64,000 nucleotides of DNA. Origin: Candidatus Omnitrophota bacterium (GTDB lineage Bacteria > Omnitrophota > Gorgyraeia > Zapsychrales > Zapsychraceae). Both the position numbers and the translations under genes were made by a program. This document shows, piece by piece, positions 8,103 through 62,382 of the stretch. Numbering within the stretch: the first letter of the stretch is position 1; the number at the start of each line of letters is the position of its first letter. Below the pieces are notes generated by a model that saw only the letters and a list, made by a program, of their open reading frames with translations, searched no databases and had not been told where the DNA came from. The stretch lies in assembly GCA_018062515.1 (NCBI GenBank), contig JAGOSC010000006.1, positions 342-64,341 on the forward strand. Direction: 5' to 3'.

Positions 8103-8221
8103 AAATAAGAGGTAATTAATCGTTTTTTAATCTTCTCTTAATGTGCACTTTGTTACACTCGACTCAGATGGTCAGAAATTAGGGAAGTAAAACAAATATA
8201 AATTAAGAAAAGGAGAAAGGC

Positions 8222-9091: not shown

Positions 9092-9103
9092 ATACGATTA
9101 TAG

Positions 9104-9146
9104 CCATTCCAGGGAGGATTTTCCTCCTTGGAATGGGAGTTTTTTT
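9104..9146 (+). terminator. Intrinsic terminator (hairpin + T-run) right after the N/Q-rich gene
   Basis: ccattccagggagga-tttt-cctccttggaatgg, followed by TTTTTTT. Confidence 0.6.
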
Positions 9147-9165
9147 AAATTTATATCCGCATTCT

Positions 9166-9198
9166 AACCCGGTTGTCAGAACCGGGTTTTTTATTTTT
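9166..9198 (+). terminator. Second intrinsic terminator
   Basis: aacccggt-tgtcaga-accgggtt followed by TTTTTTATTTTT. Confidence 0.7.
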
Positions 9199-9303
9199 AG
9201 AAAGTTTTAAGGGGTGCGAGAATTTTTTGAATTGATGCGCAAAAAAGTATGATATTATATCTCTATTATTTACGGATCAATATATCGTAATTAGGTAATA
9301 GCC

Positions 9304-9975: not shown

Positions 9976-9976
9976 T

Positions 9977-11458
9977 ATGCAGATTAATTCCATTCGTTTT
10001 AAAGCCAGCATTTTATATTCTTGCCTTTTGGCCGTCATTTTGAGTGCATTCAGCGCCGGAATTTACTTCTGCATAAAGAACATTCTTTATGATGATATCG
10101 ACGAGGAATTACGAATTAAAGCCCAAGAGACGACCAGCATATTATTGGCGTATGAGAAAATCGATTATACCGAAAAACATCCGATTGCGCAGGTTCTGGA
10201 AATGCTCAAACGTAAGGAATTAGGAATGAGTCCTAAGATGATCATTGATGATTTGTGGAGGTCTCAGGTTGAGGCCCTTAATCTCAAGGACGATTTTATT
10301 CATTTAACGGACGCGCATGGTCATGAGGCGCTTAGTTCCGACAACTTTAAGGAAGATATTTATATTTTGTTTAAGGAGGAATTTCCTGTCGCTGGTAATA
10401 AGGTGGCTTATGGTACTATTCAAGATGATCACTATAAGTTAAGAGTTATTACCATGCCGGTTTTATTCAATAATATTCAATTGTATCTCCAGATAGGAAC
10501 ATCGTTGCGGCCTATTGACCATGAGCTCAAGAATATTTTAATTTTTATGATCGGGGCCGTTATTATTTTCTTACTCCTCACCAGTTTCGTCGGAGGTATT
10601 TTTGCTAATCATGCACTTAAGCCTGTCGAACAGGTGTCTTTTCTAGCAGATTCAATAACTCATAAAAATTTAAGCGAGCGTATTAAAGGACTGCAGACCG
10701 ACGAGGAAATGAGACATCTAGTCAACTCTTTTAACGGTTTGATTGGGCGGTTGGAAAAATCATTCGGACATATCAATGAATTTAGTTCGTATGCCGCGCA
10801 TGAACTTAAAACTCCTCTGGCCATTATTCGCGGTGAAATTGAATTAGCGCTCGACGGGGAGAGAGATACTAGTCAGTACCGGCAGGTTTTACAGGGATGT
10901 CTAGAAGAAACGGATCGCCTCATAAAGGTGATTAAAGATTTATTACTGCTAGCAAGACTGGATTATAAGCCTGAAGTATTCGTTTTCGAAGAGTTGAATA
11001 TGGCAGATTTTCTAACAGAAATTCATGAACAAAGTAGAATTTTGGCGGAACAAAAGAATATTGCCGTTGATCTTAGTTTACCTACGGATAAAGTCATCAT
11101 TAAGGCTGACAAGGTTCACCTGCGGCGACTGTTTCATAATATTATTCATAATGCCATCAAGTTCACGCCTCCCGGGAAAACAATTGCGCTGAATGCAAAA
11201 ATTCAGGATAAAAGATTTCTCGTAGATGTAACGGATACCGGCGATGGAATATCAGAGGAAAATTTGAAGTTAGTATTTGAGAAATTCTTTCGTGTTCATA
11301 AAGATGATGATAAATCGGATCCCGGAACGGGTTTAGGTTTAAGCATAGCGTCATCCATTGCGAAAGCTCATGGCGGAAATATCACCGTGCAGAGTCAACT
11401 AGGCGTAGGCACAACCTTCGTTATTATCCTTCCCCTCCCATCTAAGCAAGCTTCCTAA
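9977..11458 (+). CDS. Membrane sensor histidine kinase (CusS/BaeS-like: 2 TM, periplasmic loop, HAMP, HisKA, HATPase)
   Basis: TM1 at residues ~15-35, second TM at ~190-210. H-box SSYAAHELKTPLAIIRGEIE; N/G boxes HNAIKFTPPGK, DTGDGIS, GTGLGLSIA. Starts 1 nt after the regulator stop. Confidence 0.8.
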   Translation: MQINSIRFKASILYSCLLAVILSAFSAGIYFCIKNILYDDIDEELRIKAQETTSILLAYEKIDYTEKHPIAQVLEMLKRKELGMSPKMIIDDLWRSQVEALNLKDDFIHLTDAHGHEALSSDNFKEDIYILFKEEFPVAGNKVAYGTIQDDHYKLRVITMPVLFNNIQLYLQIGTSLRPIDHELKNILIFMIGAVIIFLLLTSFVGGIFANHALKPVEQVSFLADSITHKNLSERIKGLQTDEEMRHLVNSFNGLIGRLEKSFGHINEFSSYAAHELKTPLAIIRGEIELALDGERDTSQYRQVLQGCLEETDRLIKVIKDLLLLARLDYKPEVFVFEELNMADFLTEIHEQSRILAEQKNIAVDLSLPTDKVIIKADKVHLRRLFHNIIHNAIKFTPPGKTIALNAKIQDKRFLVDVTDTGDGISEENLKLVFEKFFRVHKDDDKSDPGTGLGLSIASSIAKAHGGNITVQSQLGVGTTFVIILPLPSKQAS

Positions 11459-11543
11459 TAATTAGAAAGTTTTAATCTTCAATTAATCTTCTTTTAATAG
11501 AAGAAATGTTATAAAAGAATCAACAATTCAATGGGAGATTTTT

Positions 11544-11915
11544 ATGCCAACCATAATGATCGTTGACGACGAAGAACGGATTAGGAAAATGTACCGCCTG
11601 CTTTTTGAGCAAGAAGGCTATACGGTTATAACAGCGTCGAATATTAATGATGCCCGTCGGTTTTTGAAAATAATCCAAGTTAATTTGGTGTTGCTGGATA
11701 TCAATATGGGTGAATTTAGTGGTGATATTTTATACGAAATCATCCAGTGTTTTCATCCCGGAACCAAATTGATTGTTTCCAGCGTTTATTCGATCGACGA
11801 TCAAAGAAGTATTATGCCCAAGGCGGATGATTATTTTGACAAATCTGAAGGCAATAAAAAATTATTGGATAAAGTACGGGATGTTATTGGCCAAGACCGG
11901 GCCCACTGGAATTAA
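11544..11915 (+). CDS. Stand-alone response-regulator receiver domain (CheY-like)
   Basis: 123 aa; DD pair (IVDDEE), phospho-acceptor D in LVLLDINMGE, conserved S/T and K present; no output domain. Confidence 0.7.
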   Translation: MPTIMIVDDEERIRKMYRLLFEQEGYTVITASNINDARRFLKIIQVNLVLLDINMGEFSGDILYEIIQCFHPGTKLIVSSVYSIDDQRSIMPKADDYFDKSEGNKKLLDKVRDVIGQDRAHWN

Positions 11916-12542
11916 TTGAAGGAGAAAGGAGTGATGACGATGAAAAAAACAGGATTAATCATGTTAACATCTGCTGTCATTCTAACAGGAATGAATTCTT
12001 TTCCAGGAGTGACGACGGCAGAAGAAAGTGTCAGCGCTTTAAAAGAGCAGATTGAAGCGCTTCAAAAACGCGTTGATGAATTGGAATCATCGCAGAATTC
12101 ATTGACGACGCCAGCGCAAATTCGGCAAGACCGCTGGGATCCGCTAGAAGAGATGTCCCGTATGCAGCAGGAAATGAATCGGATGTTTCAGCAGTCTTTT
12201 TCTCAGCCTGGGTTTTCCGGACGCAATGGTTTACTGAATAGTCAAATGTCTTATGATGAAGATTTTGTCATTGAAGATGAAAAGGACCATTATTTGATCA
12301 GCCTTGACATTAAAGATTATGACAAAGATAAAATTGATATCCAAATCGACCAGCAGTCCGTCACCATATCTGGCCAACAAACCGCCCAATCAGAAGATAA
12401 GTCTCAAAATGGCTATTACAGCTCCCGCACGTACGGTTCATTTTTAAGAACACTTCCTCTTCCAGTCGACGCGGATACCGCAAAAGTACAAACCAAACAA
12501 GAAGGAGGTAAGCTTATAATAACAATTCCCAAAAAAACTTGA
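11916..12542 (+). CDS. Hsp20/alpha-crystallin-family small heat-shock protein with N-terminal signal peptide (predicted periplasmic)
   Basis: Hydrophobic h-region MKKTGLIMLTSAVILTGMNSF. C-terminal alpha-crystallin domain (..DHYLISLDIKDYDKDKIDIQID..SFLRTLPLPVDADTAKV..GKLIITIPKK). The true start may be an internal Met at 11934 or 11940. Confidence 0.65.
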   Translation: MKEKGVMTMKKTGLIMLTSAVILTGMNSFPGVTTAEESVSALKEQIEALQKRVDELESSQNSLTTPAQIRQDRWDPLEEMSRMQQEMNRMFQQSFSQPGFSGRNGLLNSQMSYDEDFVIEDEKDHYLISLDIKDYDKDKIDIQIDQQSVTISGQQTAQSEDKSQNGYYSSRTYGSFLRTLPLPVDADTAKVQTKQEGGKLIITIPKKT

Positions 12543-12569
12543 GGTTAGAGCGATCACCCTTATAAAAAA

Positions 12570-12604
12570 GGCAGACACTTATATTCTGGTGTCTGCTTTT
12601 TTTT
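12570..12604 (+). terminator. Intrinsic terminator
   Basis: gcagacac-ttatattctg-gtgtctgc followed by a T-run of 9. Confidence 0.75.
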
Positions 12605-12675
12605 GTTTTTCAAAATGTGCAAACGTTGACAATTCGGTGCAGTTTGTTATATTTGGTTAGTAAAAGGAAAATAAA

Positions 12676-13326
12676 ATGTGGCAAAGTGTATTACATAATC
12701 TAAAACTTGTCTGGACCGCCCGCGGTTTGGGTTGGAAACGGTTAAAGAAAATTATCCACATCGCATGGCATTATGAAAAACTCGACGGTGAAGTGCGGAC
12801 TTTTCGTAAAAAATCAAAAGTTTCGTGTATCAAAGGTTGTGGTAAATGTTGCGAGAATGTTTATTTAGAAACGTCGACCATCGAATTACTGCCGTTAGCA
12901 TTGGTTCTGTGGAACCGGCCTAAACGGGACTTATGGCTGAGGAAATTAAAGAAACTTCCGTCGGAAGGCCGATGTGTGTTCTATCAGAAATCTTTGGCTG
13001 GCCCCGGACAGGGACGCTGCCGGATTTATCATTTGCGCCCATTAATGTGCCGATTGTTTGGTTATGCCGCAAAAAAAAATAAGTTTGGAAATAAACAATG
13101 GGTTCTCTGCAATCCACTTAAAGGGCTTTTGGGCATGAAATATGTTGAGTTATCTTATGCCATCAACAAAGACCTTTCAATTCCTTCCGCTAATGATTAT
13201 CGGATGAAAATCCAGCAAGTCGCCTCGGGATCGGAAGCCAGGCTGCAAGCCTTACCAGATGCATTGTATGACGCCATGTCTGTTGTCTCTCTTTTAGGAC
13301 CTAAATTTAAAAATCAGAAAAGTTAA
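12676..13326 (+). CDS. YkgJ/UPF0153-family putative Zn/Fe-S-binding protein (Cys-cluster CxxxCxxCC)
   Basis: CIKGCGKCCENVY motif plus downstream Cys residues (GRCVFY, GRCRIYHLRPLMC), typical of PF03692-like proteins. Confidence 0.55.
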   Translation: MWQSVLHNLKLVWTARGLGWKRLKKIIHIAWHYEKLDGEVRTFRKKSKVSCIKGCGKCCENVYLETSTIELLPLALVLWNRPKRDLWLRKLKKLPSEGRCVFYQKSLAGPGQGRCRIYHLRPLMCRLFGYAAKKNKFGNKQWVLCNPLKGLLGMKYVELSYAINKDLSIPSANDYRMKIQQVASGSEARLQALPDALYDAMSVVSLLGPKFKNQKS

Positions 13327-13426
13327 TATTTTGCGGGAAGCTGGACAAAATGATTTGTCGAGGGATGGCAAAATATTCCATTCCAGCCTTATATAATATT
13401 TGATGTTATGGTAAAATAAAAAAATT

Positions 13427-15085
13427 ATGGAAATATTGCTGCCGAAATTCTTCACTTTATTCAAGGAAAAGTATACATTTTCCGATTTTGTACGGGATGG
13501 TTTAGCCGGGATTGTCGTCGGGATTGTTGCCCTGCCATTATCCATCGCCTTTGCGATTGCCTCCGGCGTTAAACCAGAGCAGGGCTTATATACAGCTATT
13601 GTCGCCGGGTTTATTATTTCTCTCCTGAGCGGAAGCCGGGTCCAGATTGGCGGTCCGACTGGCGCTTTTGTTGTCATTGTCTATGGTATTGTTCAGAAAT
13701 ACGGTTATGATGGTTTGGTAGTCGCTACATTGATGGCTGGAGTCATATTGATCATCATGGGATTAGCAAGATTTGGCCGTCTAATCGAATTTATCCCGTA
13801 CCCTATCACCGTCGGATTCACGAGCGGTATTGCTGTGATTATATTTACCGCCCAATTGCAGAATTTTTTAGGAATAACACTCGCCGATTCATCGCCAGAA
13901 TTTATCCATAAAATTTATGCCATATGGACCCATCTTGATATCGTTAATTTTTGGTCGGTCTTGATTGGAGTTATAACCATCGGTATCATTCTTCTTACGC
14001 CCCATTTATTTAAAAAAATTCCTGGGTCAATTGTGGCCATTGTCGTAACAACCGTATTAGTGGCCGTTTTTCATTTTCCGGTAGAAACGATTTATATGCG
14101 TTTTGGTGATATTCCCAGCACTTTACCGCCGGTGCATATTCCAGTGTTTGATTGGCCTATGATTAAAGCGCTGATTATGCCGGCGTCGACGATTGCGTTA
14201 TTGGCAGGGCTTGAATCTTTATTATCAGCGGTGGTGGCTGATGGGATGACGGGTTTCCGGCATCGATCGAATATGGAATTGATCGCCCAAGGCGCGGCGA
14301 ATATCGGGTCGGCGCTGTTCGGCGGTATTCCCGCGACGGGTGCTATCGCGCGCACGGCGACCAACATCAAAAACGGCGGACGCAGCCCCGTCGCCGGACT
14401 AGTCCATGCCATCACGTTACTATTTATTCTTCTTATGTTCGGGAAATGGGCGGCATTAATACCGATTCCGACGCTGGCAGCCATATTGATCATTGTTGCC
14501 TACAATATGAGCGAGTGGAGAATGTTTGTTAAACTTTTTAAAACTCCCCTGAGTGATATTCTCGTGCTATTAACAACATTTTTGCTGACTGTTTTTGTTG
14601 ACCTAACGGTGGCCATACAGGTTGGGGTTGTCTTGGCCGCTTTTTTATTTATGAAGCGTATGGTTGAGATTACGGACATTGAACACATTTCCTTGAATAT
14701 TGGAATGGGAGATCCCGAAGAATCAAAAGATAATATGGCCGTGGATATTCCAGCAGATGTGGCTATCTTTGAAATTAATGGTCCGTTCTTTTTCGGCGCA
14801 GCGAGTAAATTTACAACTGTTCTTAAAGAGATCCAGGAAGGCAAGAAGGTTTTGATTCTGAAAATGGACCATGTCCCGATTATTGACGCGACCGGTTTGC
14901 GGGCCTTTGAAGACATTGTTGATAAGATAAAGAAGAAAAATGGCGGAATTGTCCTTTCAGGTATAAAATCACAACCGCTCGACGTGTTGAAGAAATACCG
15001 ACTGAATGAAAAGATAGGAGAGGAAAATATCTGCAAGGATATGGACGAGGCTTTGGCGCGAGCTAAATATTTATTTAACCATTAA
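13427..15085 (+). CDS. SulP-family anion transporter with C-terminal STAS domain
   Basis: 552 aa; SulP signature region (..GLAGIVVGIVALPLSIAFAIASGV..GLYTAIVAGFI..SLLSGSRVQIGGPTGAF..); C-terminal ~130 aa soluble STAS-like domain. Confidence 0.85.
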   Translation: MEILLPKFFTLFKEKYTFSDFVRDGLAGIVVGIVALPLSIAFAIASGVKPEQGLYTAIVAGFIISLLSGSRVQIGGPTGAFVVIVYGIVQKYGYDGLVVATLMAGVILIIMGLARFGRLIEFIPYPITVGFTSGIAVIIFTAQLQNFLGITLADSSPEFIHKIYAIWTHLDIVNFWSVLIGVITIGIILLTPHLFKKIPGSIVAIVVTTVLVAVFHFPVETIYMRFGDIPSTLPPVHIPVFDWPMIKALIMPASTIALLAGLESLLSAVVADGMTGFRHRSNMELIAQGAANIGSALFGGIPATGAIARTATNIKNGGRSPVAGLVHAITLLFILLMFGKWAALIPIPTLAAILIIVAYNMSEWRMFVKLFKTPLSDILVLLTTFLLTVFVDLTVAIQVGVVLAAFLFMKRMVEITDIEHISLNIGMGDPEESKDNMAVDIPADVAIFEINGPFFFGAASKFTTVLKEIQEGKKVLILKMDHVPIIDATGLRAFEDIVDKIKKKNGGIVLSGIKSQPLDVLKKYRLNEKIGEENICKDMDEALARAKYLFNH

Positions 15086-51205: not shown

Positions 51206-51457
51206 ATGAAAAAGAAGTTTTTGTCAACATTCTTAAGCGTATTGGTCGGGGCGATGATTTTAACCCAGGCTGTATTTGCTGAAGACGTCTACGTGACGAA
51301 AAACGGTAAAAAGTACCACAAAAAGGAATCCCGCTTTATCAAAGGTAAGGAAGTTGAACAATTAACCATTGAAGAAGCTGAAGCGCGTGGTTATAAACCT
51401 AGCAGTGAGTTCCTTAAAGACGCAGACACGGAAGCTAAAGCAACCGAAAGCAAATAG
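51206..51457 (+). CDS. Small secreted lysine-rich protein
   Basis: Signal peptide MKKKFLSTFLSVLVGAMILTQAVFA. RBS AAGGAGG. Terminator-like hairpin follows (51471-51500). Confidence 0.45.
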   Translation: MKKKFLSTFLSVLVGAMILTQAVFAEDVYVTKNGKKYHKKESRFIKGKEVEQLTIEEAEARGYKPSSEFLKDADTEAKATESK

Positions 51458-51624
51458 TAACAGAGTATAAATAAGAGGGGACATGTGTCTCCTCTTATTT
51501 ATATACTACAGGTAGTGGTATCTGGACGAATTTTAGTATTTATCAGATTTATTTTTGACTTATTTTTGCATTATCGAAAAAAGTATACTATACTCCCACT
51601 AGACAATTTGATTTTATCGTTGTG

Positions 51625-51770
51625 AACGATAAAGGCAAACCCGGGGTAACCCGGCGACGCAAAGCTAAAGGGTCCTAGAATAGGATAGCCAGTTACCGAA
51701 ACAGAATGAAGAGACTTTCTTCAGTGAAGTTTCATGGCCTATTCCTATCTAAAAGGGAATAGGCTTTTTT
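51625..51770 (+). promoter_or_regulatory. Candidate c-di-GMP-I (GEMM) riboswitch with intrinsic-terminator expression platform
   Basis: Aptamer ..aaaGGCAAACC-CGGG-GUAA-CCCGG-CGACGCAAAGC-uaaaggGUCCUAgaaUAGGAUagccaGUUACCGAAAC. Contains the GEMM GCAAACC, GACGCAAAGC and GUUACCG blocks and a GNRA-capped P2-like hairpin. Terminator ggcctattcc-tatctaaaa-gggaatagg followed by T7 at 51736-51769, just upstream of the NHL gene. Confidence 0.65.
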
Positions 51771-51807
51771 TATGGAAAACAGTAAGGACAAAAAGGGGAA
51801 CAGAATC

Positions 51808-54138
51808 ATGAGAATACAAACCATCGCCATCAACCAACAGCTAATAAAGGGAGTAAGTATTTTGGCGCTTCTTTTATTTTGGGTGACAACCGTGCATGCT
51901 AAGGAATCGATTAAATTTATTAATGAGCTTAAAGCAGATATGAAAATGCCGGTAGATGTGGCCTTGGCTCCTAACAAAGATATTTATGTTTTGGATCAAA
52001 AAATCCCGCAAGTTTTTGTTTTTAATCCGGCTGGAAAAATAATGTTTAGTTTCGGCCGTTCCGGTTCTGGAATGGGTGAGTTAAGCAATCCGCAATCACT
52101 CGCTATATCAAGGAATGGGGATGTTGTTATCGCTGATACGGGCAATAAACGGGTACAGGTATTTAATGCCCGCGGAAATTTTATGTATGAATTGGGAAAT
52201 TCTGGAAGTGAACCCGGGCAGTTCTCTGAGCCCGCATTAGTCGCGACTGATGCTTACGGATATATCCTCGTGGCTGATACATCAAATAAGTCGATTTCAA
52301 AGTTTTCACCGAAAGGTGTGTTCTTCCAAAGTATTCCTTTGGAAGGAAGTCCGACCGATATGGTATTTGATATCCAGCAAAATTTATATATGTTTTATCC
52401 TGAAATGGGAAAAATTGTTAAATGGCCCATGGAAGGGAAAATGGAGAGTATCGAATTTGCTTGGGAAGGCCGAAATTATGTGGCTGATGCTGCCCGTATT
52501 TCTGTCGATATGAGAGGAGATATTTATCTTATTGACCAATTGAAAAACAGTGTCGTTAAAATTGATCAAAAAAGAAAAATTTTATTGTCGTTTGGTTCTA
52601 AAGGAACCGGCCGTGGCCAATTTGATCAACCATTGGGTATGGTGACCGATGATCAAGGTAACATTTATATTGCCGACACAAAAAATAGACGTGTACAGAT
52701 GATTGAAGTTTTAGGAAGTGAAAAAACGGCGCTGGTTCCCGTTGAGGGAAAAGCTCCGGTCGTCGATTACGCGCAGTCGATATCCGCTCAGAAATCCTTG
52801 TCCGATATAGAATATGATGAAAAATACGGTTTGTTTGCATTATCTGAAGTGAGCGGCCTTATCCTTCATCAAAGAAAAAACAGCTTGGGTATTTATGGAG
52901 ACCCGAACGAAAAGGTCGTTAAAATGCAAGCTCCGATGGCCATGCAGATATTAAATGACGGTAAAATGCTGGTTGCAGATACAGGAAATAATCGCCTTCA
53001 ATTCTTAAATGCCAATGGAAGTCATGATTATTTATTCGGTACAAAAGGCATGGATAATGGCCAATTCGATTCATTATCTGGGGTAGCGGTTAATCGCGAA
53101 GGACAAATTTATGTCGCAGATACTAAAAATAATCGCATACAAATTTTTAACAGCGACGGGATATACTTAAAGTCTTTTGGACAAAAAGGCGAAATGGATG
53201 GTAATAATAAGTTGCCCAGACTTGGTTATTTTAATAATCCGAAAACATTGGAATTTGACTCAAAAGGTTTACTTTATGTCCTAGATACAAAAAATAAAAG
53301 AATACAAGTTTTTGATCAAGAAGGAATTGCTTTGAAAGAAATCGGGACGGCCAGAGATACGGGAAAATTTATTGATCCCGTCGATTTGGCTATTGATGAA
53401 TGGGATAATTTATATGTGGCTGACCGTGGGAGTCATACGGTTAAAGTATTAAATAATCAGGGAAAACCGATTACAGAATTCGGTTCAGACGGAAAGGGCC
53501 CAAGTTATTTTCCTAAATTATCGTCCATTAGTGCTGCAAAAGGTAAAATATACATAGCCGATTATGATACCGATGAGATTAAGGTCTTTGATATTCATAT
53601 CAATGACAAGCTTATGGACACAAAGATGGTAATGAAGAATGAAGAAAAGGCGCCGGCTAAAGCGATGGTTTCCAAGGCAAATAATGCTGCGCCTAAAAAA
53701 AGTAAATTAATGATTTCAGCGAATACAGTTAGCGCTGATGAAATCGCTGTGGTAGATCAGATGGTTAAAAGCGAACAGCCTGTCGTAAGCGAGCAGCCAA
53801 ATGTTTTTCAAAGACCAAAAATTATTGAAAACAATGGAGTTAAGCATACATCAGATAGAGTTTATTTTACTCAAGTTTCTTATCCCCTTAAGACCGAAAA
53901 TGCCAACGAAAAAATAAAAGTCGAAATGGTTTATAAAATGACATTGCAATTAGCCATTGTCAACATTTCAACCAAATATGGGATGGATGTCAAAGCAGTT
54001 ACGCCTCATATTAAGGTTGAAAAAGAAGATATTCTCGAAGATGGCCGTTTAAGAATCACCGTCAGTGTACCTAAAGATTTGTCAAATATGAAACAGTCTA
54101 CCCAGGCTGATATGGATACTGAAATTAAGGAATTATAG
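51808..54138 (+). CDS. Secreted NHL-repeat protein (two six-bladed beta-propellers, ~11-12 NHL repeats) with ~190-aa C-terminal domain of unknown function
   Basis: Signal peptide ..LALLLFWVTTVHA. Recurring NHL pattern P..LA.d..G.iyVaD..N.riqvF...G. Start moved to ATG 51808 (RBS AAAGGGGAA), since the track start at 51772 abuts the terminator T-run. Confidence 0.7.
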   Translation: MRIQTIAINQQLIKGVSILALLLFWVTTVHAKESIKFINELKADMKMPVDVALAPNKDIYVLDQKIPQVFVFNPAGKIMFSFGRSGSGMGELSNPQSLAISRNGDVVIADTGNKRVQVFNARGNFMYELGNSGSEPGQFSEPALVATDAYGYILVADTSNKSISKFSPKGVFFQSIPLEGSPTDMVFDIQQNLYMFYPEMGKIVKWPMEGKMESIEFAWEGRNYVADAARISVDMRGDIYLIDQLKNSVVKIDQKRKILLSFGSKGTGRGQFDQPLGMVTDDQGNIYIADTKNRRVQMIEVLGSEKTALVPVEGKAPVVDYAQSISAQKSLSDIEYDEKYGLFALSEVSGLILHQRKNSLGIYGDPNEKVVKMQAPMAMQILNDGKMLVADTGNNRLQFLNANGSHDYLFGTKGMDNGQFDSLSGVAVNREGQIYVADTKNNRIQIFNSDGIYLKSFGQKGEMDGNNKLPRLGYFNNPKTLEFDSKGLLYVLDTKNKRIQVFDQEGIALKEIGTARDTGKFIDPVDLAIDEWDNLYVADRGSHTVKVLNNQGKPITEFGSDGKGPSYFPKLSSISAAKGKIYIADYDTDEIKVFDIHINDKLMDTKMVMKNEEKAPAKAMVSKANNAAPKKSKLMISANTVSADEIAVVDQMVKSEQPVVSEQPNVFQRPKIIENNGVKHTSDRVYFTQVSYPLKTENANEKIKVEMVYKMTLQLAIVNISTKYGMDVKAVTPHIKVEKEDILEDGRLRITVSVPKDLSNMKQSTQADMDTEIKEL

Positions 54139-54192
54139 TAATTTTCCTACCGGTTTGCTGACCTGCAGACCAGTCTTTCCTCCAGAAAAAAG

Positions 54193-54219
54193 GCAGCCCT
54201 ATAACGGGCTGCTTTTTTT
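54193..54219 (+). terminator. Intrinsic terminator after the NHL gene
   Basis: gcagccc-tataac-gggctgc followed by TTTTTTT. Confidence 0.8.
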
Positions 54220-54333
54220 GTTCTCCCCTGTCAAAGAAATCCTTTGACTTTGTAAATAAAATGTTGCATACTCTTACCTTGTAAGTAGTTAATGTATTGT
54301 ACAAATATTTTCATACTGTCGTGTGTTAAACTT

Positions 54334-55974
54334 ATGGATAATAAATCTCTAAAGTTAGGACAAATCCTCTTAGGTGAGGGTATACTAGACAAACAGCAAT
54401 TGCAGGACTTGCTGGATTCTCAAAAAACCGATCCCCGGCCACTCGGCGAGATTATTATTCAAAAGGGTTTAGTCGACGATAATCGTCTGACAGAAGTCCT
54501 GGCCAAGATGTTTCAAATTCCTTATGTCGATCTTCGGCAAACGAAGATTGATTCTACGCTTATCGGCCTTATTCCGACCGATTTATTGCAAGTCCACCGC
54601 GTTCTCCCCATAAAATTAGAAGATCAAAAATTAACCGTTGCCACAAATAATCCGCTGGACGTCAATGTTTTACAAGACCTTCAGATCAGAACCGGATATA
54701 CGATTATTCCTATCATGTCCAGTATCAAGGACATAGACCAGAATTTGCAAGAATATTTTGATTCCATCAATACCGGTGTAAAAATGTCCTCATCGAAAAA
54801 GGATGATAATGAGGCCCGGGTCATGCAATATATTGATGCTATTATCCGAAGAGCTATTCGAGAAAAGACTTCAGATATTCATTTTGAGCCATTGAAGGAA
54901 TCCATGAGAGTCCGTTTCAGGATTGATGGTGTTCTTTATGAAAAAGATACGATTGGAAAAGATTTACAAAGAAACTGTATTTCGAGAATTAAAATTATTT
55001 CCGGTATGGATTTGACAGAAACGAGACGCCCGCAAGATGGCCGCTGTTCGTTTACCGTCGGAATGGGACAATATGACCTGCGGGTATCTACTTTGCCGAA
55101 TATTAATGGTGAAAGTCTTGTCATGAGGATTTTAACCAAAAGTTTCATTAAACAATCTTTCTCTACTTTAGGGATGAGCCCAAGCATGATTAAAGATTTG
55201 GAGTCTTTAGTCGAAAAGCCATATGGACTTATTTTAGTCACCGGACCAACGGGGGCTGGCAAAACGACTACTCTATATGCTATGCTTGGTCAATTAAACG
55301 ACTCCGAAAGGAGCATTATTACGGTTGAAGATCCAGTTGAATATGAATTAGAGGGGATTTGCCAAACCCCGACGAATACGGCCATAGGATATACATTTGC
55401 TAATGCCATTCGGCACATTTTACGGCACGACCCGGATGTCATTATGATTGGAGAAATTAGAGATAGAGAAACAGCGGAAATTGCTATCCGTTCTGCCTTA
55501 ACGGGCCACTTAGTTCTATCTACCATGCACACCAACACCGCAGCCGGAGCCGTCACCCGATTATTGGAAATGGAAATTGAGCCTTTTTTGATCAGCAGTG
55601 CCTTAAATGGCGTTATTTCACAACGTTTGGTTCGGGGATTATGTACTTCCTGTAAGGAAATTTATACACCAGAGCCGGAAATTGTTAATAGAATTCGTCA
55701 ATATGTGCCACTTGAAGATGGTGCTAAGCTGGCTAGGCCGATTGGTTGCGACGCATGTTTAACGACTGGATTTAGAGGCCGATCGCCTATTTTTGAAATA
55801 TTGAAAGTTGATGAAACTATTCGGCATTTAATCATCAAATCAGCAGATGAATCGGTAATTTCGGAGACAGCCGTGAAGAATGGAATGAAGTTATTAGGGG
55901 TCGCTGGTTTAGAGAAAGTTGTTAATCAGTCCACAGAATTTAGTGAAACAATGCGCAACGTGTTTATCGATTAG
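54334..55974 (+). CDS. pilB: Type IV pilus assembly ATPase PilB (GspE family)
   Basis: GspE-N domain start MDNKSLKLGQILLGEGILDKQQL. Walker A GPTGAGKTT, Asp/His boxes, tetracysteine CTSC...CDAC. Track start at 54292 is probably too early. Confidence 0.8.
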   Translation: MDNKSLKLGQILLGEGILDKQQLQDLLDSQKTDPRPLGEIIIQKGLVDDNRLTEVLAKMFQIPYVDLRQTKIDSTLIGLIPTDLLQVHRVLPIKLEDQKLTVATNNPLDVNVLQDLQIRTGYTIIPIMSSIKDIDQNLQEYFDSINTGVKMSSSKKDDNEARVMQYIDAIIRRAIREKTSDIHFEPLKESMRVRFRIDGVLYEKDTIGKDLQRNCISRIKIISGMDLTETRRPQDGRCSFTVGMGQYDLRVSTLPNINGESLVMRILTKSFIKQSFSTLGMSPSMIKDLESLVEKPYGLILVTGPTGAGKTTTLYAMLGQLNDSERSIITVEDPVEYELEGICQTPTNTAIGYTFANAIRHILRHDPDVIMIGEIRDRETAEIAIRSALTGHLVLSTMHTNTAAGAVTRLLEMEIEPFLISSALNGVISQRLVRGLCTSCKEIYTPEPEIVNRIRQYVPLEDGAKLARPIGCDACLTTGFRGRSPIFEILKVDETIRHLIIKSADESVISETAVKNGMKLLGVAGLEKVVNQSTEFSETMRNVFID

Positions 55975-55992
55975 TTAAAGGATTAAGAATTA

Positions 55993-57204
55993 ATGCCTAC
56001 CTATGTTTATAAATTAAAAGATGAGTCCGGCAAAACATTATACGGTTTTACGGAAGCTGATAATAAAAATAACTTGAAAGAAAAAATGAGGAATTTCAAG
56101 TATTACTTTATTTCAGCAGAAGTTGTTGACCGCAAAAAGATTTTTGAATCAAAAGTGAGCATTGACACGCTTTTGGTATTTACACGCCGTCTCGGTTCAT
56201 TGATTGAATCAGGTATTCCATTTATAACGGCTATGAATATTCTTTGGCGGCAATCAGAAGATAAGACCATTCAGCTGGTGGTCTGCCATATGCGAAATCG
56301 TCTGGAAGAGGGAAAAAATATATCCATGTCCATGAGTGAATTTCCTAAAATGTTTAATCCTATGTATTTAGCGATGATCACTGTTGCCGAAAAAGCTGGC
56401 GGTTTGGTGGCCATTCTTAAACGATTGATTAGTTATTTAGAGTATCATAAGTTATTTATCACTAGAACCAAAAAAGCCATTTTATACCCGAGCATTGTTG
56501 CCGGTTTTGCTGTTTTGGTGGTTATCGTTATGTTTGTTGTTCTAGTTCCGCAGTTTGCAAAAGTTTTAGGTGGTTTAAGGGTGGAATTACCAGGGATAAC
56601 TAAACTCGTTATAGCCATTTCTAATCTAATGCGGTCACCGGTTTTTATTTTTTCCGTCATTGGAATATTAACACTTGGTACTATGATATTTAGGTATTTA
56701 ATGCGAGATCCCAAATTTGCAAAGAAAGTTGATTATTACCTCTTGAAAATTCCTTTTATTGGGGATATACTCTACTCATTGTCTTTGGGGAGGTTTGTTC
56801 GATCTTTAGCTATGTTGGTTGGGGCAGGCCTACCGATCTTTGAAAGTTTTGATATAGCTAAAACGACTACAGCAAATCGTTATATTGTAGAAGGGGTAAA
56901 TATTACTCAGCAAAGATTACAAGCCGGTAATTCTCTCTATGAATCCTTCAAAGAAGCGCGGATGTTTCCGGTGTTGTTCACGGAAATGATCGGCGTTGGA
57001 GAAACGAGTGGTTCAATTGTTAAGTCTTTTGACAGCTTAGCTGATCATTTTGATGAAGAAGTCGATTATAAACAAAACAAATTTTTTACCATGCTTGAAC
57101 CGGCATTAATGATTTTTGTCGGGGGCATAGTTATCTTTACGCTCTTAGCCATATATATGCCAATATTTTCGATTTGGGATGGCTTGATGAATTATAGAAA
57201 GTAA
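55993..57204 (+). CDS. pilC: Type IV pilus platform protein PilC (GspF family)
   Basis: Two GspF repeats, 3 TM; ..FTRRLGSLIESGIP.. / ..FVRSLAMLVGAGLP... Confidence 0.8.
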   Translation: MPTYVYKLKDESGKTLYGFTEADNKNNLKEKMRNFKYYFISAEVVDRKKIFESKVSIDTLLVFTRRLGSLIESGIPFITAMNILWRQSEDKTIQLVVCHMRNRLEEGKNISMSMSEFPKMFNPMYLAMITVAEKAGGLVAILKRLISYLEYHKLFITRTKKAILYPSIVAGFAVLVVIVMFVVLVPQFAKVLGGLRVELPGITKLVIAISNLMRSPVFIFSVIGILTLGTMIFRYLMRDPKFAKKVDYYLLKIPFIGDILYSLSLGRFVRSLAMLVGAGLPIFESFDIAKTTTANRYIVEGVNITQQRLQAGNSLYESFKEARMFPVLFTEMIGVGETSGSIVKSFDSLADHFDEEVDYKQNKFFTMLEPALMIFVGGIVIFTLLAIYMPIFSIWDGLMNYRK

Positions 57205-57240
57205 AGAAAAAGATACTGAGAGCAAAAAATAACATGGTGT

Positions 57241-57256
57241 TGGTATAAAAATTGCT
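57241..57256 (+). promoter_or_regulatory. Candidate sigma54 (-24/-12) promoter upstream of the pilin gene
   Basis: tGGtat-aaaaa-tTGCt: GG and GC are spaced as in TGGCAC-N5-TTGCW, ~165 nt upstream of the pilin ATG. Confidence 0.3.
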
Positions 57257-57421
57257 GATTATTAAATATTGTAAATGCGCAAAACGTTTCTAATACGAAG
57301 TTTAGGAGTAAAAGATAATTTAATAGTCATAATGAAATGTTAAAATAAATGTGCATTTTGTTGATATATGTACAATTTTTAAATCACAAACCACAAACAA
57401 CAAGTAAAGGGAGATACAAAA

Positions 57422-57805
57422 ATGAAGACAACAAACAAAAAAGGTTTCACTTTGATCGAAGTTCTAACCGTCATGGTTATTATTGGGATCATCCTAGCTT
57501 TGGTTCTACCTAACATTATCAAAGCTATTGAACAAGGTAATATTACGGAATACCAAAGTGATTTAAGATCAATCACCTCAGCAGCTTTTATGTGCTTTAC
57601 AGAAAAACGAACCTGGGCAGCGCCGTGTGATGATCCTGCTACACTACTAACTGAGGAATTTTTAACCTCTGTTCCAGTAAACCCATTATCAAGTGGTGGT
57701 GCATACCGATTAGAGGCTCAATCATCAGGTGCATTAATTGCATGTGTTCCAACACAGCCTGTATTAGCCAATGGTACTGCACTTAATCGATGCGTTCAAT
57801 ACTAA
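57422..57805 (+). CDS. pilA: Type IV pilin (prepilin with N-terminal cleavage/methylation domain)
   Basis: MKTTNKKG|FTLIEVLTVMVIIGIILALVLPN is a class III signal peptide. Two Cys near the C-terminus (D-region disulfide). Confidence 0.8.
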   Translation: MKTTNKKGFTLIEVLTVMVIIGIILALVLPNIIKAIEQGNITEYQSDLRSITSAAFMCFTEKRTWAAPCDDPATLLTEEFLTSVPVNPLSSGGAYRLEAQSSGALIACVPTQPVLANGTALNRCVQY

Positions 57806-57826
57806 TCTAGTTTAAAGAAATTCATT

Positions 57827-59323
57827 ATGAAACAATATCTTGGGGTAGACATATCGGATGATTTCATCCGGTATGTCTGCCTAGATATAAAAAATACGGA
57901 TTACATTATCACCAAATCAGGCAAGTCAAAGATTGATTTTGACTTATTGACTGCGGATGCTTTATGTAATGCTATTAAAGATATAGTGAGCCGAGAGGGG
58001 CTAAGACCCTCACGGATATTTGTGTCTTTATCCCGTAAGGACACCGTTATCCATCAATTAATGCTTCCCAAACTTACCTCAAGAGAGTTTGATGAAGTCC
58101 TTAAGATGGAAATAGAGAAAATCCCCACTTTTCACAAACAATCCTTTGATTTTATATACAAAAAATACCAAATATCTGTTGATAAAGTTAAGGTTCTTTT
58201 GGCGGCTGTACGTTTAGATATTCTGACGAGTCTATTAAAAGAAGTTAATAACACAAAAATTCCTTTCCATCAGGTTGAAATTGCGCCGCTCAACTTTAGA
58301 GAATTACCCAACATTATCGATCCAACGAGTGAGAATGATGCCTTCCTTATTATGTCAGATCAGCAAACCTACTTAGGTATTTTCATGAAGGGGGAGTATA
58401 GGCTGATTTATAAATTGGCGTATGGTTTAAAACAGGTTCAAAATATTACCTCTCCGGAGCAAGTCAAAACAATCGTAACTGATTGGGGAACTCAAATTAA
58501 ACGAGTTTTAAAGTCTTTCCTCATGGACAATCGGAATGTGGTGATTAGAAAAATATGGTTGGTTTGGGACAATGAGATTATCCCGAATTTTGAGCAATAT
58601 ATCGGTAACTTTGATATTCCGGTTGAAGTATTGGATGCGCGTAAAATCAAGCAAATTCACACATCTGAAAATAATCCGCTTAATCCTATTTATATGTTAG
58701 CCTTAGCGCCTATTGTCTACGACGTTCATCAACTGAAACTTCAATTTCCTCTTCAACATTTCTTTGGACGTTTTCAAGTTAAGACTTATGCTCTTAAGTG
58801 CGCTGTTGTCACCGCCTCGATTTTAGGTATTATTGGATTTTTATTTGCGGTGAGTAATATCTGGATTAATGTTAGGAAAAATTATTTTGTTACTCAAAAT
58901 AATGCCGCAGAAAGCAAAATTACACAGTTGAAACAAGAAGCATCCACTCTTTATCAAGAATATGCTGCTTATCAAGAAGTCCGCGAACAATTTTTGGCTC
59001 AAGCGACGTTTGTTCAGGAAATCAATCGTATATCATGGGCCCAAGTCTTTTCCATCGTGGCAAATGAGCTTCCGCAGGATTTAGCTTTAACCTCATTTAA
59101 GTTTGTTGAGAGCGGAGGAGCTACTATTAATGGCGAGGCGCTTAACATGGAATCTATTTCTGAAATGCTACGTCGTATTGAAGAATCAGCCATTCTCGAT
59201 CAAGGTCGATTTGATTTCTTAAGAGAAAAGAAAGTTCAAGAACAAAAATTGTTTAATTTTGGCATACTAGCTGCGCTAAAGGCAGAGGAAGAGAAACCGG
59301 TCGATGACAAAACAAAAAATTAA
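57827..59323 (+). CDS. pilM: PilM-PilN fusion protein (actin-like ATPase domain + single-TM coiled-coil PilN)
   Basis: N-terminal ~300 aa PilM/FtsA-like, then TM CAVVTASILGIIGFLFAV and a coiled-coil PilN-like region. Confidence 0.65.
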   Translation: MKQYLGVDISDDFIRYVCLDIKNTDYIITKSGKSKIDFDLLTADALCNAIKDIVSREGLRPSRIFVSLSRKDTVIHQLMLPKLTSREFDEVLKMEIEKIPTFHKQSFDFIYKKYQISVDKVKVLLAAVRLDILTSLLKEVNNTKIPFHQVEIAPLNFRELPNIIDPTSENDAFLIMSDQQTYLGIFMKGEYRLIYKLAYGLKQVQNITSPEQVKTIVTDWGTQIKRVLKSFLMDNRNVVIRKIWLVWDNEIIPNFEQYIGNFDIPVEVLDARKIKQIHTSENNPLNPIYMLALAPIVYDVHQLKLQFPLQHFFGRFQVKTYALKCAVVTASILGIIGFLFAVSNIWINVRKNYFVTQNNAAESKITQLKQEASTLYQEYAAYQEVREQFLAQATFVQEINRISWAQVFSIVANELPQDLALTSFKFVESGGATINGEALNMESISEMLRRIEESAILDQGRFDFLREKKVQEQKLFNFGILAALKAEEEKPVDDKTKN

Positions 59324-59909
59324 ATATTTGTTCATCCTCGGTTCCGTGCTGTTTGTTGGCGTCATGATTTCCATTAGTGTACAAAATGTCCGCGACTATT
59401 TTCAGGCAAAAGTACAGTTTGATGAAAAACAAAAAGAATTGAAGGATGTTTTGGATGAGATTAACGTTATAAAAGCGAAAATTGCTTTATATCAGGAAGA
59501 AAAGAAAGAATTTGAGGCATACCTCTTTAAAGAACAAGATATTCCAGCCTTACTCGACGATATTTCTAAAATTGCCAAAGAATCTTTAGTTAATATTCTC
59601 GATATGAAAACGCAGGGATTTAGTATGGTCCAATCGGCGAGAAGGAGTCAAGGAAATAATACCCAGAATGTTTCTCAAAAAGAGCAACTTAAAGAAACGC
59701 TGACATTGGCAGCTATGCCAATCAATATGAGAATAGAAGGGGAATTTACCGCGTTATTAACTTTTTTTAATTCGATTGAAGATTTTAAACAGTTGGTTAC
59801 GGTAAGCCAGGTAGAAATCACATCAGACAATCAATATCCCATTCTTAAATGTTCATATATATTAAAAATTTACAGTTTGAAAACATTAGCCGAGATCGAA
59901 ACACGATGA
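59304..59909 (+). CDS. pilO: Type IV pilus inner-membrane component PilO-like
   Basis: N-terminal TM (LFILGSVLFVGVMI), coiled coil, C-terminal ferredoxin-like PilO region; overlaps both neighbours. Confidence 0.55.
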   Translation: MTKQKIKYLFILGSVLFVGVMISISVQNVRDYFQAKVQFDEKQKELKDVLDEINVIKAKIALYQEEKKEFEAYLFKEQDIPALLDDISKIAKESLVNILDMKTQGFSMVQSARRSQGNNTQNVSQKEQLKETLTLAAMPINMRIEGEFTALLTFFNSIEDFKQLVTVSQVEITSDNQYPILKCSYILKIYSLKTLAEIETR

Positions 59910-60331
59910 AACATTTAATTTATTTAATTATAATTTTGGTTTGTTTTTCAGGATGTTCATCGAAGAAAAAAGAGGTTGTCGTCAGTGAACCAGTTGTCGA
60001 AAAAGTAGAAGACTTACAATTAGCTAAGATTATTCTAAAACCTGAAAAGCCTGAAATTAGCGTCACGAGAGACCCTTTCAAACCGTTAATAGAACTTAAT
60101 AAAGGTCCGGCGGCGCTTGTTCTCAACATAGGTGAACAATTAGAACGGTATAAGTTTATGGGTGTTACGAAATCAGATGATGAATACGTCGCTTTCATAA
60201 AGGATGGAGCAAAGAGGGGAACATATCGAAAAAACGATATGTTAAATGAGTTTAAAATAGTTGACATAGGACCGCAAGAGGTATTATTATTAAACGGCGA
60301 AAAAACTTTCACATTAAAAAGAGGTAAATGA
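59906..60331 (+). CDS. pilP: PilP-like lipoprotein
   Basis: Lipobox MKHLIYLIIILVCFSGC; small beta-domain protein between pilO and the secretin. Start revised from 59849. Confidence 0.55.
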   Translation: MKHLIYLIIILVCFSGCSSKKKEVVVSEPVVEKVEDLQLAKIILKPEKPEISVTRDPFKPLIELNKGPAALVLNIGEQLERYKFMGVTKSDDEYVAFIKDGAKRGTYRKNDMLNEFKIVDIGPQEVLLLNGEKTFTLKRGK

Positions 60332-62382
60332 AAATGAGAATGAAACAATATGTTTTGTTGGGCGTGAGTACGTGTTTATTACTACATGTGACCGCATCGG
60401 TTACGATGGCTTATCAAACAGGAGAAAATGGAAAACTTCAAAGAGGCAGTGAAGAAATTGTAGACGATTATGTTTCTTCAAAGCTTGAGTCAGACATGAC
60501 TGCCTATTACGAAAATATTGAACTTTCCAGCGATGATTTGACAGAACAACAAAACGATCATATTTTCACTTCTATAGAAAATGAAAAAATAAAACCGCAA
60601 ACCGGTTGGTCAGCTGATGCTGGCGGATCCGATGAAAATGTTGAAGCCATTTCCAATGTTGAAAAGGCTGATAACAATGAAACGGTTCAGGAAGTTACCG
60701 CAGAAGAAAACAAAACCGCGAAATCTGAAAAGAAAGGTTTTTTTAGCAAGTTAGCTGGAGTGTTTAAGAGATCAGATAATAAAACTGAGATAGCTAAAGC
60801 TGAACCAGTCGTCGTTGAAGATGTCGATGGTAATAAAGGTTATTTTGTCCCGGCCGAAACTAATATGAAGGAAGAAGCTTATGTGCAAGTTGCGCAAGTT
60901 TCGGAGCCTGTAGAAGTCGAGGAAGAAGCTATAGAAGCTCTAGATGAAGACGTACAGGAAGAAGCAGCCGAAGAACAAACAAAAGGATCATCTTGGACTA
61001 AAGTTAAAGATAAATTGACTGGTAGTTCCTCAACCCCTCAAACTGAAGAAGAATATTGGGATGTGCCAGTTAAGGAACAAAGTCTCAGTGATATCAGTGC
61101 GAATTTAGATGTGGACGCTGCGTTTAAAGAAGCTCAATTAATTACATTACCGGAAGCTCCTGCTGTTAAAGTTGAAGCAGAACAACCTCAGTTCGAAGCC
61201 CTTCTTCCATCAACGGAAGAAATGGTCCGTAACGCTATTCCTCAAGAAAATAGAGACAAAAGAATTGATCTGGATTTTGATGACACCAGTCTTTCTGATG
61301 TCCTTTCTATTATAGCTGATGCTGGAAATATGAATATCGTGTTAGATCCTAGCTTGAAAGCCAATACGCTGGATCTTCACTTAAAACAAGTTAGATTAGA
61401 AGATGCGCTTTTATTAGTTTTTAGTTCGTATAATCTTGGCTTCAAGCAAGTCGGAGGTGCGATTTACGTTACTGATAAAGAAAAATTATTGGAAGAGCAT
61501 AAAGTATCACGCATTGTTAAAATTAAAAATATAGCCGTTCAAGATGCTAAGGATTTAGTTGATTCATTAACAGACAAAGTAAATTTGAGTGAAGAGTTAA
61601 ATAGTTTAGTCATCATGGGAAATCCTGACGATGTCGCTAAAGTACAGAAACTGATTCACGATATCGACAAACCGCAATTGCAGGTTTTATTAGAATCTAA
61701 GATCATCGAAATGAACAAAGATGCGTTAAAAGATCTGGGTGTAGATTGGTCCGATCAAGTAGTCATGGGATATCAGGAAAGTGGAAGACCGGTATCCTTT
61801 AGTGATCCGGAAGATTCTGATTCACCGCTATATCATTTTTCTCAAATCCAGCGAAATCCGCTTCAATTTGACACCACTATCAATATGTTAGAAACTCAAA
61901 ATAAGGCCAAAATTCTTTCCGCTCCGAGAGTCACAACACTTAATGGAAAAGAAGCAGAAATTTTCGTCGGGGATGAAGTTCCATACACAATTACAAATAT
62001 TTCCGGTGGTGTCGTAACGAATGATGTCCGCTTCGTTTCACCTGGTATTCGATTAAAAATCACGCCATCGATTATTGAAGATGGTTTCGTGGTCATGAAA
62101 GTTGAACCGGAAGTAAGTTTTATCGTTGCTTTTAGAGGGCCGAATAGTGAATTCCCTCAAGTTCGGACACGAGAAGCAACCGCCTACGTTCGGGTCAATG
62201 ATAAGCATCCGTTCGTCATTGGTGGTATACTTAACCAAGAAGATAAGCAAGTCTTAAACAGAGTTCCGTTTATTGGTAGAGTTCCATTGATTGGAAATCT
62301 TTTCAGCTATTCATTGGATACAGCCGTTGACACAGATTTGATTATTACTGTTATTCCTACGATTGTTCGCGGACAGGAATAA
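60328..62382 (+). CDS. pilQ: Type IV pilus secretin PilQ (GspD family) with long acidic N-terminal region
   Basis: Signal peptide; N0/N1-like ..TSLSDVLSIIADAGNMNIVLDP..; C-terminal secretin domain ..VPFIGRVPLIGNLFS..DLIITVIPTIV... Confidence 0.8.
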   Translation: MKMRMKQYVLLGVSTCLLLHVTASVTMAYQTGENGKLQRGSEEIVDDYVSSKLESDMTAYYENIELSSDDLTEQQNDHIFTSIENEKIKPQTGWSADAGGSDENVEAISNVEKADNNETVQEVTAEENKTAKSEKKGFFSKLAGVFKRSDNKTEIAKAEPVVVEDVDGNKGYFVPAETNMKEEAYVQVAQVSEPVEVEEEAIEALDEDVQEEAAEEQTKGSSWTKVKDKLTGSSSTPQTEEEYWDVPVKEQSLSDISANLDVDAAFKEAQLITLPEAPAVKVEAEQPQFEALLPSTEEMVRNAIPQENRDKRIDLDFDDTSLSDVLSIIADAGNMNIVLDPSLKANTLDLHLKQVRLEDALLLVFSSYNLGFKQVGGAIYVTDKEKLLEEHKVSRIVKIKNIAVQDAKDLVDSLTDKVNLSEELNSLVIMGNPDDVAKVQKLIHDIDKPQLQVLLESKIIEMNKDALKDLGVDWSDQVVMGYQESGRPVSFSDPEDSDSPLYHFSQIQRNPLQFDTTINMLETQNKAKILSAPRVTTLNGKEAEIFVGDEVPYTITNISGGVVTNDVRFVSPGIRLKITPSIIEDGFVVMKVEPEVSFIVAFRGPNSEFPQVRTREATAYVRVNDKHPFVIGGILNQEDKQVLNRVPFIGRVPLIGNLFSYSLDTAVDTDLIITVIPTIVRGQE

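Follow-up and report, generated by a model that had tools for sequence, protein, structure and literature searches.

We studied a putative riboswitch in a 64,000-nucleotide (nt) stretch of Candidatus Omnitrophota DNA (contig JAGOSC010000006.1; hereafter the window), located in the leader (51600-51808) 5' of a gene for a secreted NHL-repeat protein. The leader contains an aptamer that is almost certainly of the cyclic di-GMP class I type (c-di-GMP-I, also GEMM-I) followed by an intrinsic terminator, and the overall arrangement is probably a c-di-GMP-I OFF switch acting on one gene, that for a secreted protein with two NHL propellers. The features of the leader and its gene are the following (positions are those of the window; bp, base pairs):

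51565..51594, + strand: predicted sigma-70-like leader promoter (TTTGCA, 18-nt spacer, TATACT), found by a consensus scan; hexamers conserved
51613..51633, + strand: 5' hairpin H0, formed by UUUAUCGUU (51613-51621), loop GUG and AACGAUAAA (51625-51633); present in every minimum-free-energy fold
51617..51709, + strand: predicted extended P1 of the ligand-bound fold, from a constrained fold; excludes H0
51624..51700, + strand: c-di-GMP-I (GEMM-I) aptamer, assigned with near certainty; full-length RF01051 match of 65.2 bits, covariation in 13 relatives
51676..51751, + strand: predicted transient antiterminator, from truncated-transcript folding; in 12 of 16 units, above shuffles
51736..51772, + strand: leader intrinsic terminator (11-bp stem, 8-nt loop, U7; about -16.5 kcal/mol), found by a pattern scan; conserved in orthologues
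51808..54138, + strand: NHL gene, an open reading frame (ORF) for a secreted 776-residue protein (Pfam NHL, E=1e-50), with a GGGGA ribosome-binding site at ~51796-51800

A search with Rfam 15 at gathering thresholds gave a single match in the whole window, RF01051 (c-di-GMP-I/GEMM-I) at 51624-51700 of the positive strand, with 65.2 bits against a gathering score of 35, E=1.7e-10 and model positions 1-87 of 87 covered; the cmscan check that a first-pass annotation of this DNA had set beforehand was thus passed. The conserved blocks which that annotation had read in the leader were all present in the right order, at the positions it gave or a few bases away: GGCAAACC, the CCGGG-GUAA-CCCGG hairpin, GACGCAAAGC, a second hairpin and GUUACCGAA. 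The P2 helix spans 51641-51654 with its GUAA tetraloop at 51646-51649, P3 spans 51663-51694, and alignment to the RF01051 model placed the pocket positions G20, A47 and C92 at 51634, 51661 and 51696. When the family structure was laid on 13 related aptamers, 93.8% of the cells were paired and seven pairs had changed on both sides (five of them in P2); the tetraloop, which would dock to P3, the C of GAC (51658, which would form the C44-G83 inter-helix pair) and the AG bulge of P3 (51686-51687) were invariant in the 13 sequences. None of 500 shuffles matched the observed percentage of paired cells or the covariation score, one of 500 matched the count of compensatory pairs, and sliding the 3' partners by 1-3 columns left 24-46% of the cells paired. 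Covariation thus supports P1, P2/P1b and P3/P2 of the three-helix junction. Compared with Vc2 of Vibrio cholerae tfoY, the structural reference of RF01051, the element shares the three helices, a GNRA tetraloop on P2, the AG bulge of P3, the equivalents of G20, A47 and C92 and an A-rich J1/2 junction. It differs in having GUAA in place of GAAA, a shorter P3, an inner P1 of just 2 bp that needs an outer extension, and an intrinsic terminator as expression platform. By every sequence-level criterion tested it is an ordinary member of RF01051, and it adds nothing new to the riboswitch class itself.

The association with the NHL gene was conserved. A riboswitch, single or tandem, preceded 11 of the 14 orthologous NHL genes examined, and the riboswitch-bearing NHL loci were those labelled L001-L003, L005-L009, L011, L089, L091 and L092; no riboswitch at the gathering score was found before the orthologues of L090, L012 and L013. 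An NHL-alignment scan of genome contigs returned mostly generic NHL proteins of many phyla, the useful loci being L009-L013, and L008 and L010 lie on the same contig. Full-length orthologues with 53-68% identity keep the gene order of the window, i.e., ALAD, an ORF of 81-84 residues, the leader, the NHL gene, a T2SSE/MshEN ATPase, T2SSF, a pilin, a PilM-PilN fusion and PilO, and Rfam detected a GEMM-I aptamer ~100 nt 5' of every one of these syntenic orthologues. More distant orthologues (36-48% identity) have no adjoining pilus genes and most keep the riboswitch, so the conserved partner is the NHL gene and not the pilus locus.

Four relatives carry tandems of two complete aptamer-terminator units (L008, 5716-5939; L011, 3622-3842; L089, 4638-4891; L092, 4577-4890) and L091 has a single unit. 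Tandem c-di-GMP-I riboswitches such as Bc3-5 of Bacillus thuringiensis (PMC4759541) are comparable to these four; the window, unlike them, holds a single unit, whose counterpart is the gene-proximal one in L089. Both share the same H0 and P2 sequence, and the window unit may therefore descend from a tandem, or the reverse. In the first aptamer of the L092 tandem (4577-4652) position 20 is a C (AAUCGCAAAC) and the match to RF01051 still reaches 57.6 bits; judged by its sequence, this may be a naturally occurring variant of altered specificity, followed by a canonical aptamer in the same tandem. In L008, a complete Omnitrophota chromosome (OY759724.1), an ORF of at least 2059 residues without a Pfam match (8118-14121) overlaps and directly follows the NHL gene, in keeping with reports of giant surface proteins in this phylum.

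The first-pass annotation had also described a clean intrinsic terminator after the aptamer, in the manner of transcription attenuation. The terminator is there (stem 51736-51765, then a U7 run to 51772), and the attenuation layout is real and conserved in orthologues. It starts 35 nt 3' of the aptamer without overlapping it. In the full-length leader fold (z = -4.0) the 5' hairpin, P2, P3, a middle hairpin and the terminator form together, and folding of truncated transcripts gave a succession of structures: transcripts ending at or before 51734 contain the hairpins of the aptamer and the middle hairpin; with ends between 51746 and 51759 the antiterminator is the minimum-free-energy structure and P3 of the aptamer is broken; at 51765 the 3' arm is made and the terminator supplants the antiterminator. 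The predicted antiterminator pairs the 3' strand of P3 (51676-51690) with the 5' arm of the terminator, GGCCUAUUCCUAUCUA (51736-51751), and stacks on a closing helix, GAAAC (51698-51702) with GUUUC (51729-51733), and on the middle hairpin (51707-51723). Of 16 aptamer-terminator units from the relatives, 12 had it as their minimum-free-energy structure, the P3 3' strand was the best aptamer partner of the terminator 5' arm in 11 of the 16 (the duplex in L089a reached -20.5 kcal/mol), and shuffled arms matched the observed P3 pairing in just 0.5-12.5% of trials in each of the nine units out of nine tested. With the aptamer constrained to the secondary structure of its ligand-bound state, the terminator arm stayed free and the terminator formed. 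The predicted folds thus combine a hairpin, a U-tract and an exclusive antiterminator built from aptamer nucleotides, as in an intrinsic-terminator OFF-type platform, and because the ligand-bound fold frees the terminator arm we consider a transcriptional OFF switch the probable polarity.

The closest known counterpart is Cd1, an experimentally characterised riboswitch upstream of the flgB flagellar operon of Clostridioides difficile (PMC9262584). In Cd1 the aptamer can exist side by side with the terminator, and the two have a common competitor, a short-lived antiterminator that rearranges into the terminator at a later stage. Cd1 and the Omnitrophota leader share a class-I aptamer with the G20/A47/C92 pocket, transcriptional OFF logic, a separate terminator, an antiterminator made of an aptamer strand and the terminator 5' arm, and a kinetic decision; on the Omnitrophota side the logic, the antiterminator and the decision are predicted. 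The two differ in their setting, Firmicutes and flagella for Cd1 against Omnitrophota and a secreted NHL-propeller protein, and in that the mechanism here is a predicted one. Moreover, in the Omnitrophota leader the antiterminator would invade P3 and be extended by the closing helix and the middle hairpin, and the extra hairpin H0 would compete with P1 and the pocket.

The opposite polarity has points in its favour. Extracellular and adhesion-type proteins are often induced at high c-di-GMP, and an MshEN-like motif in the ATPase encoded next to the NHL gene (see below) would fit a positive action of c-di-GMP on the locus. If the element were an ON switch, like the GEMM-I switches Vc1 or Bc2, c-di-GMP would block the terminator and induce the NHL gene. 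The constrained ligand-bound fold, however, pairs neither arm of the terminator, which then forms; the separate position of the terminator is unlike the pilM-type ON design; and the only conserved partner of the terminator 5' arm is the aptamer strand that the ligand would sequester. We consider an ON switch unlikely.

H0 contributes -6.7 kcal/mol and is conserved, with variable loops, in L001-L007 and in the second (gene-proximal) aptamer of L089. It sequesters the 5' strand of the inner P1 (CG, equivalent to Vc2 C13-G14) together with the five junction nucleotides before G20. In Vc2, C15-G19 are among the nucleotides that contact the ligand (PMC7288161), so H0 and a formed pocket would be mutually exclusive. 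The extended P1 that would replace H0 comprises UCGUU (51617-21), UG (51623-24) and CG (51627-28) on its 5' side, and CG (51697-98), CA (51702-03) and AAUGA (51705-09), within the conserved 3' flank CGAAACAGAAUGA, on the other; the RF03167 consensus closes its P1, on the outside, with the G-C pair of this UG:CA step. An equivalent duplex is possible in all eight H0-bearing leaders, with UG:CA replaced by CG:CG in L005 and L006 and an additional A-U pair in L003, L005 and L006. Relative to the free fold, the ligand-bound fold costs 4.0 kcal/mol when the transcript ends at 51711, 7.6 at 51734, 10.6 at 51746 and 14.9 at 51754. This growing gap implies a limited kinetic window for ligand action, and the overlap of the extended-P1 3' strand with the base of the antiterminator makes P1 formation and antitermination exclude each other. 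From these models we judge the chances evenly balanced that H0 is a functional competitor of the aptamer; our hypothesis is that it biases the RNA to read-through and raises the effective ligand threshold.

Two other readings of this region were set aside. RNAalifold proposed a long-range P1 (UUUGG/CCGAA) enclosing H0, which would pair C92 and C93, needed free for the ligand and the inner P1; in addition, the window is without one G residue of this helix, which is not conserved in L089b. H0 as a palindromic DNA operator was judged less likely, since its loop varies between 3 and 6 nt with the arms staying complementary and the 5' arm has a second conserved RNA partner in the extended P1. The GEMM-I class is among the most widespread of riboswitches, and our own P2-anchored aptamer pattern scan of metagenome contigs gave at least 120 GEMM-I loci, mainly from soil. 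The scan added no covariation evidence for H0, and the sole relative-like match among these loci, L106, is without H0. Many of the soil copies (L093-L212, e.g., L095, L101, L107 and L110) share a conserved GC-rich hairpin directly 5' of the CGACAAA-GGCAAAC junction, with the insert GGCAGGAUCGC-CCCCUC...GAGGG-AGCGCGACAAA; to judge from such sequences, upstream hairpins abutting P1 may be a recurrent, undescribed feature of GEMM-I.

Because H0 is stable, is the first structure to form and occludes the pocket junction, it might shut the pocket altogether and leave the gene constitutively ON in vivo, or regulation might proceed mainly through mRNA stability or translation; Vc2 itself is reported to act on RNA stability (bioRxiv 10.1101/617340). 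These possibilities are improbable, since the extended P1 is nearly isoenergetic with H0 (+4 kcal/mol), the terminator and its complementarity to P3 are kept across divergent leaders, and the ribosome-binding site at ~51796-51800 pairs with riboswitch sequences in no fold.

As to the ligand, G20 of Vc2 reads the Hoogsteen edge of one ligand guanine (G-alpha) and C92 forms Watson-Crick pairs with the other (G-beta) (PMC6140456); the roles of the pocket residues, including A47, also follow PMC11705072. The first-pass annotation had stated that the G directly 5' of GCAAAC would favour c-di-GMP, and its numbering was correct: this G (51634) is Vc2 G20. The A20 that marks the GEMM-Ib type, selective for cyclic GMP-AMP (cGAMP), was found neither in the window nor in any close orthologue, all of which have G. 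Likewise, the G47 of the c-di-GMP-I-GGC variant (RF03167; GACGCG...) was found neither in the window nor in any relative, where the sequence is GACGCAAA with A47. RF03167 scores slightly higher than RF01051 in some relatives because its model includes P1, and a GGC-type pocket in them was rejected. With G20, A47 and C92 in place c-di-GMP is expected over cGAMP, and these pocket residues make it very likely the ligand. The GEMM-Ib cGAMP riboswitches of Geobacter (pilM, Gs1761) have the same fold and also lie at loci for pili and extracellular proteins, but they have A20, are ON switches and have a terminator overlapping the aptamer, as opposed to the G20 and separate terminator here. That the aptamer senses 3'3'-cGAMP, or both ligands, is very doubtful: covariance models barely tell GEMM-I from GEMM-Ib and some natural members are bispecific (PMC6140456), but cGAMP riboswitches have A20 and wild-type, G20 Vc2 discriminates against cGAMP (PMC6140456).

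The OFF switch would then operate as follows. Transcription is predicted to begin near 51600, at a promoter whose hexamers, together with the sequence from TAGACAATTTG onward, are kept in seven orthologous loci. H0 would form first, covering the inner P1 strand and the pocket junction, and the P2 and P3 hairpins next; the emerging 3' flank CGAAACAGAAUGA could then displace H0 and build the extended P1 around the pocket. Since the ligand-bound fold lies just ~4 kcal/mol above the free fold at this point, binding of c-di-GMP could pay for the extended P1. With ligand bound, P1, P2 and P3 would be locked and the terminator 5' arm left without a partner, and the 51736-51765 hairpin with its U7 would stop transcription before the gene. 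If c-di-GMP is absent, a long but short-lived antiterminator, in which the terminator 5' arm and the stretch immediately ahead of it are paired with the 3' strand of P3 and the 3' flank, would allow read-through. High c-di-GMP would thus mean less NHL protein, with the pilus operon on its own promoter.

Several observations weigh against this scheme. The antiterminator between P3 and the terminator arm was not given in four of the 16 units (L007, L008b, L011b and L091), and the P3 strand of L008b carries an A-to-C change with no matching change in the terminator arm. Many of the units come from close relatives, so that the independent observations number about 6-7, and the toggle between extended P1 and H0 is backed by one compensatory event, in the sister taxa L005 and L006. 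At full length, thermodynamics favour the terminator fold whether or not ligand is present, so that the switch would rest entirely on kinetics; ligand binding, the transcription start and termination each enter the scheme as predictions. Finally, a motif scan of all ORFs of the 64-kb window for GGDEF, EAL, HD-GYP and PilZ gave nothing but a spurious EAL-like string, i.e., no diguanylate cyclase or phosphodiesterase motif.

The protein encoded by the regulated gene is 100% identical to the hypothetical protein KBD53_01990 of a Candidatus Omnitrophica metagenome-assembled genome; a further ATG upstream, at 51772, is in frame with its ORF. An AlphaFold2 model built from a 15-sequence alignment had a mean predicted local distance difference test (pLDDT) value of 80.6. 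It begins with a signal-like N-terminal helix (signal peptide residues 1-30, ending ...TTVHA|KES), followed by two six-bladed NHL propellers of 24 strands each (residues 34-302 and 319-596); the first-pass annotation, which had proposed a secreted NHL-repeat protein of ~11-12 blades, agrees with this 2 x 6 arrangement. Foldseek gave a TM-score of 0.84 to the NHL domain of TRIM71, and both the NHL repeats (E=1e-50) and the six-bladed fold of the model are those of PF01436. The remainder, described earlier as one 190-residue C-terminal domain, is in fact a low-complexity disordered linker of ~75 residues rich in Lys, Glu and Pro (601-676, pLDDT <50) plus a folded alpha/beta domain of ~80 residues (684-760) with the order beta-alpha-alpha-beta-beta. 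This domain is still unassigned, as the annotation had it, and 14 C-terminal domains, searched against Pfam with E allowed up to 5, yielded no consistent match.

Downstream of the NHL gene we found the following features (UTR, untranslated region; T2SS, type II secretion system):

54146..54219, + strand: 3' UTR of the NHL gene, with a hairpin and CU-rich element (54150-54190) and a terminator (54193-54219); conserved in orthologues
54244..54272, + strand: predicted sigma-70-like promoter (TTGACT, 17-nt spacer, CATACT), found by a scan; conserved (TTGACA-like/CATACT) in orthologous intergenic regions
54292-62382, + strand: pilus/T2SS-like operon (ATPase, platform protein, pilin, PilMN, PilO, secretin), from Pfam

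The NHL gene has its own terminator, as first annotated: a strong, symmetrical hairpin at 54193-54212 with T- and A-runs on both sides, the T-run reaching 54219. The pilus cluster had been said to begin 120 nt later; the ATPase ORF opens at 54292 and more likely starts at 54334, which is 73-115 nt past the terminator and behind its own conserved promoter. With a conserved terminator and a separate promoter before the ATPase, the riboswitch directly gates the NHL transcript, and the earlier proposal that it controls this gene only draws further support from the pilus-free orthologues that keep the riboswitch. Read-through into the pilus operon is possible, though not required.

The 3' UTR element, CCGGUUUGCUGACCUGCAGACCAGUCUUUCCUCCAG, occurs in exactly one copy per syntenic orthologue. 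Its hairpin (GGUUUGC-loop-GCAGACC) shows one-sided U-A/U-G changes in L003 and L007, and a CU-rich, anti-Shine-Dalgarno-like tract, UCUUUCCUCCAG, lies directly before the terminator. Rfam at a permissive E-value gave for this 3' UTR just weak, terminator-driven matches and no family, and sites complementary to the CU-rich tract numbered 19 in the window against 22 expected by chance. It may be a regulatory RNA derived from the 3' UTR, or else an element that affects stability.

MshEN domains consist of two RLGxx(L/V/I)(L/V/I)xxG(L/V/I)(L/V/I)xxxxLxxxLxxQ motifs of 24 residues each, 5 residues apart (PMC5013675). The N-terminus of the ATPase (gene 54292-55974; N-terminus 54334-54495) reads KLGQILLGEGILDKQQLQDLLDSQ-KTDPR-PLGEIIIQKGLVDDNRLTEVLAKM, two MshEN-like motifs of 24 residues with a 5-residue spacer. 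It fits the relaxed motif bar the last residue (M in place of Q, N, K and the like), and K and P replace the two Arg. A protein-level c-di-GMP receptor may thus adjoin the RNA-level one.

These elements can be joined in one more speculative picture, a combined RNA/protein c-di-GMP module in which a two-sided toggle in the GEMM-I leader, a c-di-GMP-responsive regulatory RNA from the 3' UTR and the MshEN-type ATPase would act together. The lineage-specific H0 would raise the c-di-GMP threshold of an otherwise picomolar aptamer, and the riboswitch-gated transcript would deliver the 3'-UTR hairpin with its anti-Shine-Dalgarno-like CCUCC tract. We hold the combination, with both of these parts, to be a long shot; if true, the module would control surface structures in predatory or epibiotic Omnitrophota.

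In the literature searched on Omnitrophota we found no mention of riboswitches or c-di-GMP. A 2026 preprint on the phylum describes NHL-rich giant proteins flanked by genes for T2SS and type IV pili, and this regulation is not discussed there. Our results present a standard c-di-GMP riboswitch, often in tandem, as used in an uncultured and poorly understood phylum, and identify a conserved member of its regulon, the secreted double NHL-propeller protein with its unassigned C-terminal domain, whose gene is fixed beside a type IV pilus/T2SS-like operon in one lineage. They offer a handle on what c-di-GMP controls in these bacteria, namely a surface or extracellular protein whose production is predicted when c-di-GMP is low, and H0, if a competitor, would be a small and testable case of a possible way to tune a very tight aptamer. 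To the first-pass annotation they add the predicted OFF polarity, the proposed H0/extended-P1 toggle, a corrected architecture for the protein and the conserved association, across Omnitrophota, of the riboswitch with the NHL gene.

Upstream of the riboswitch promoter, a conserved small ORF (51206-51496; 83 residues, no Pfam match) separates it from the ALAD gene. A terminator-like hairpin at 51475-51496 belongs to this ORF, which is kept in all syntenic orthologues.

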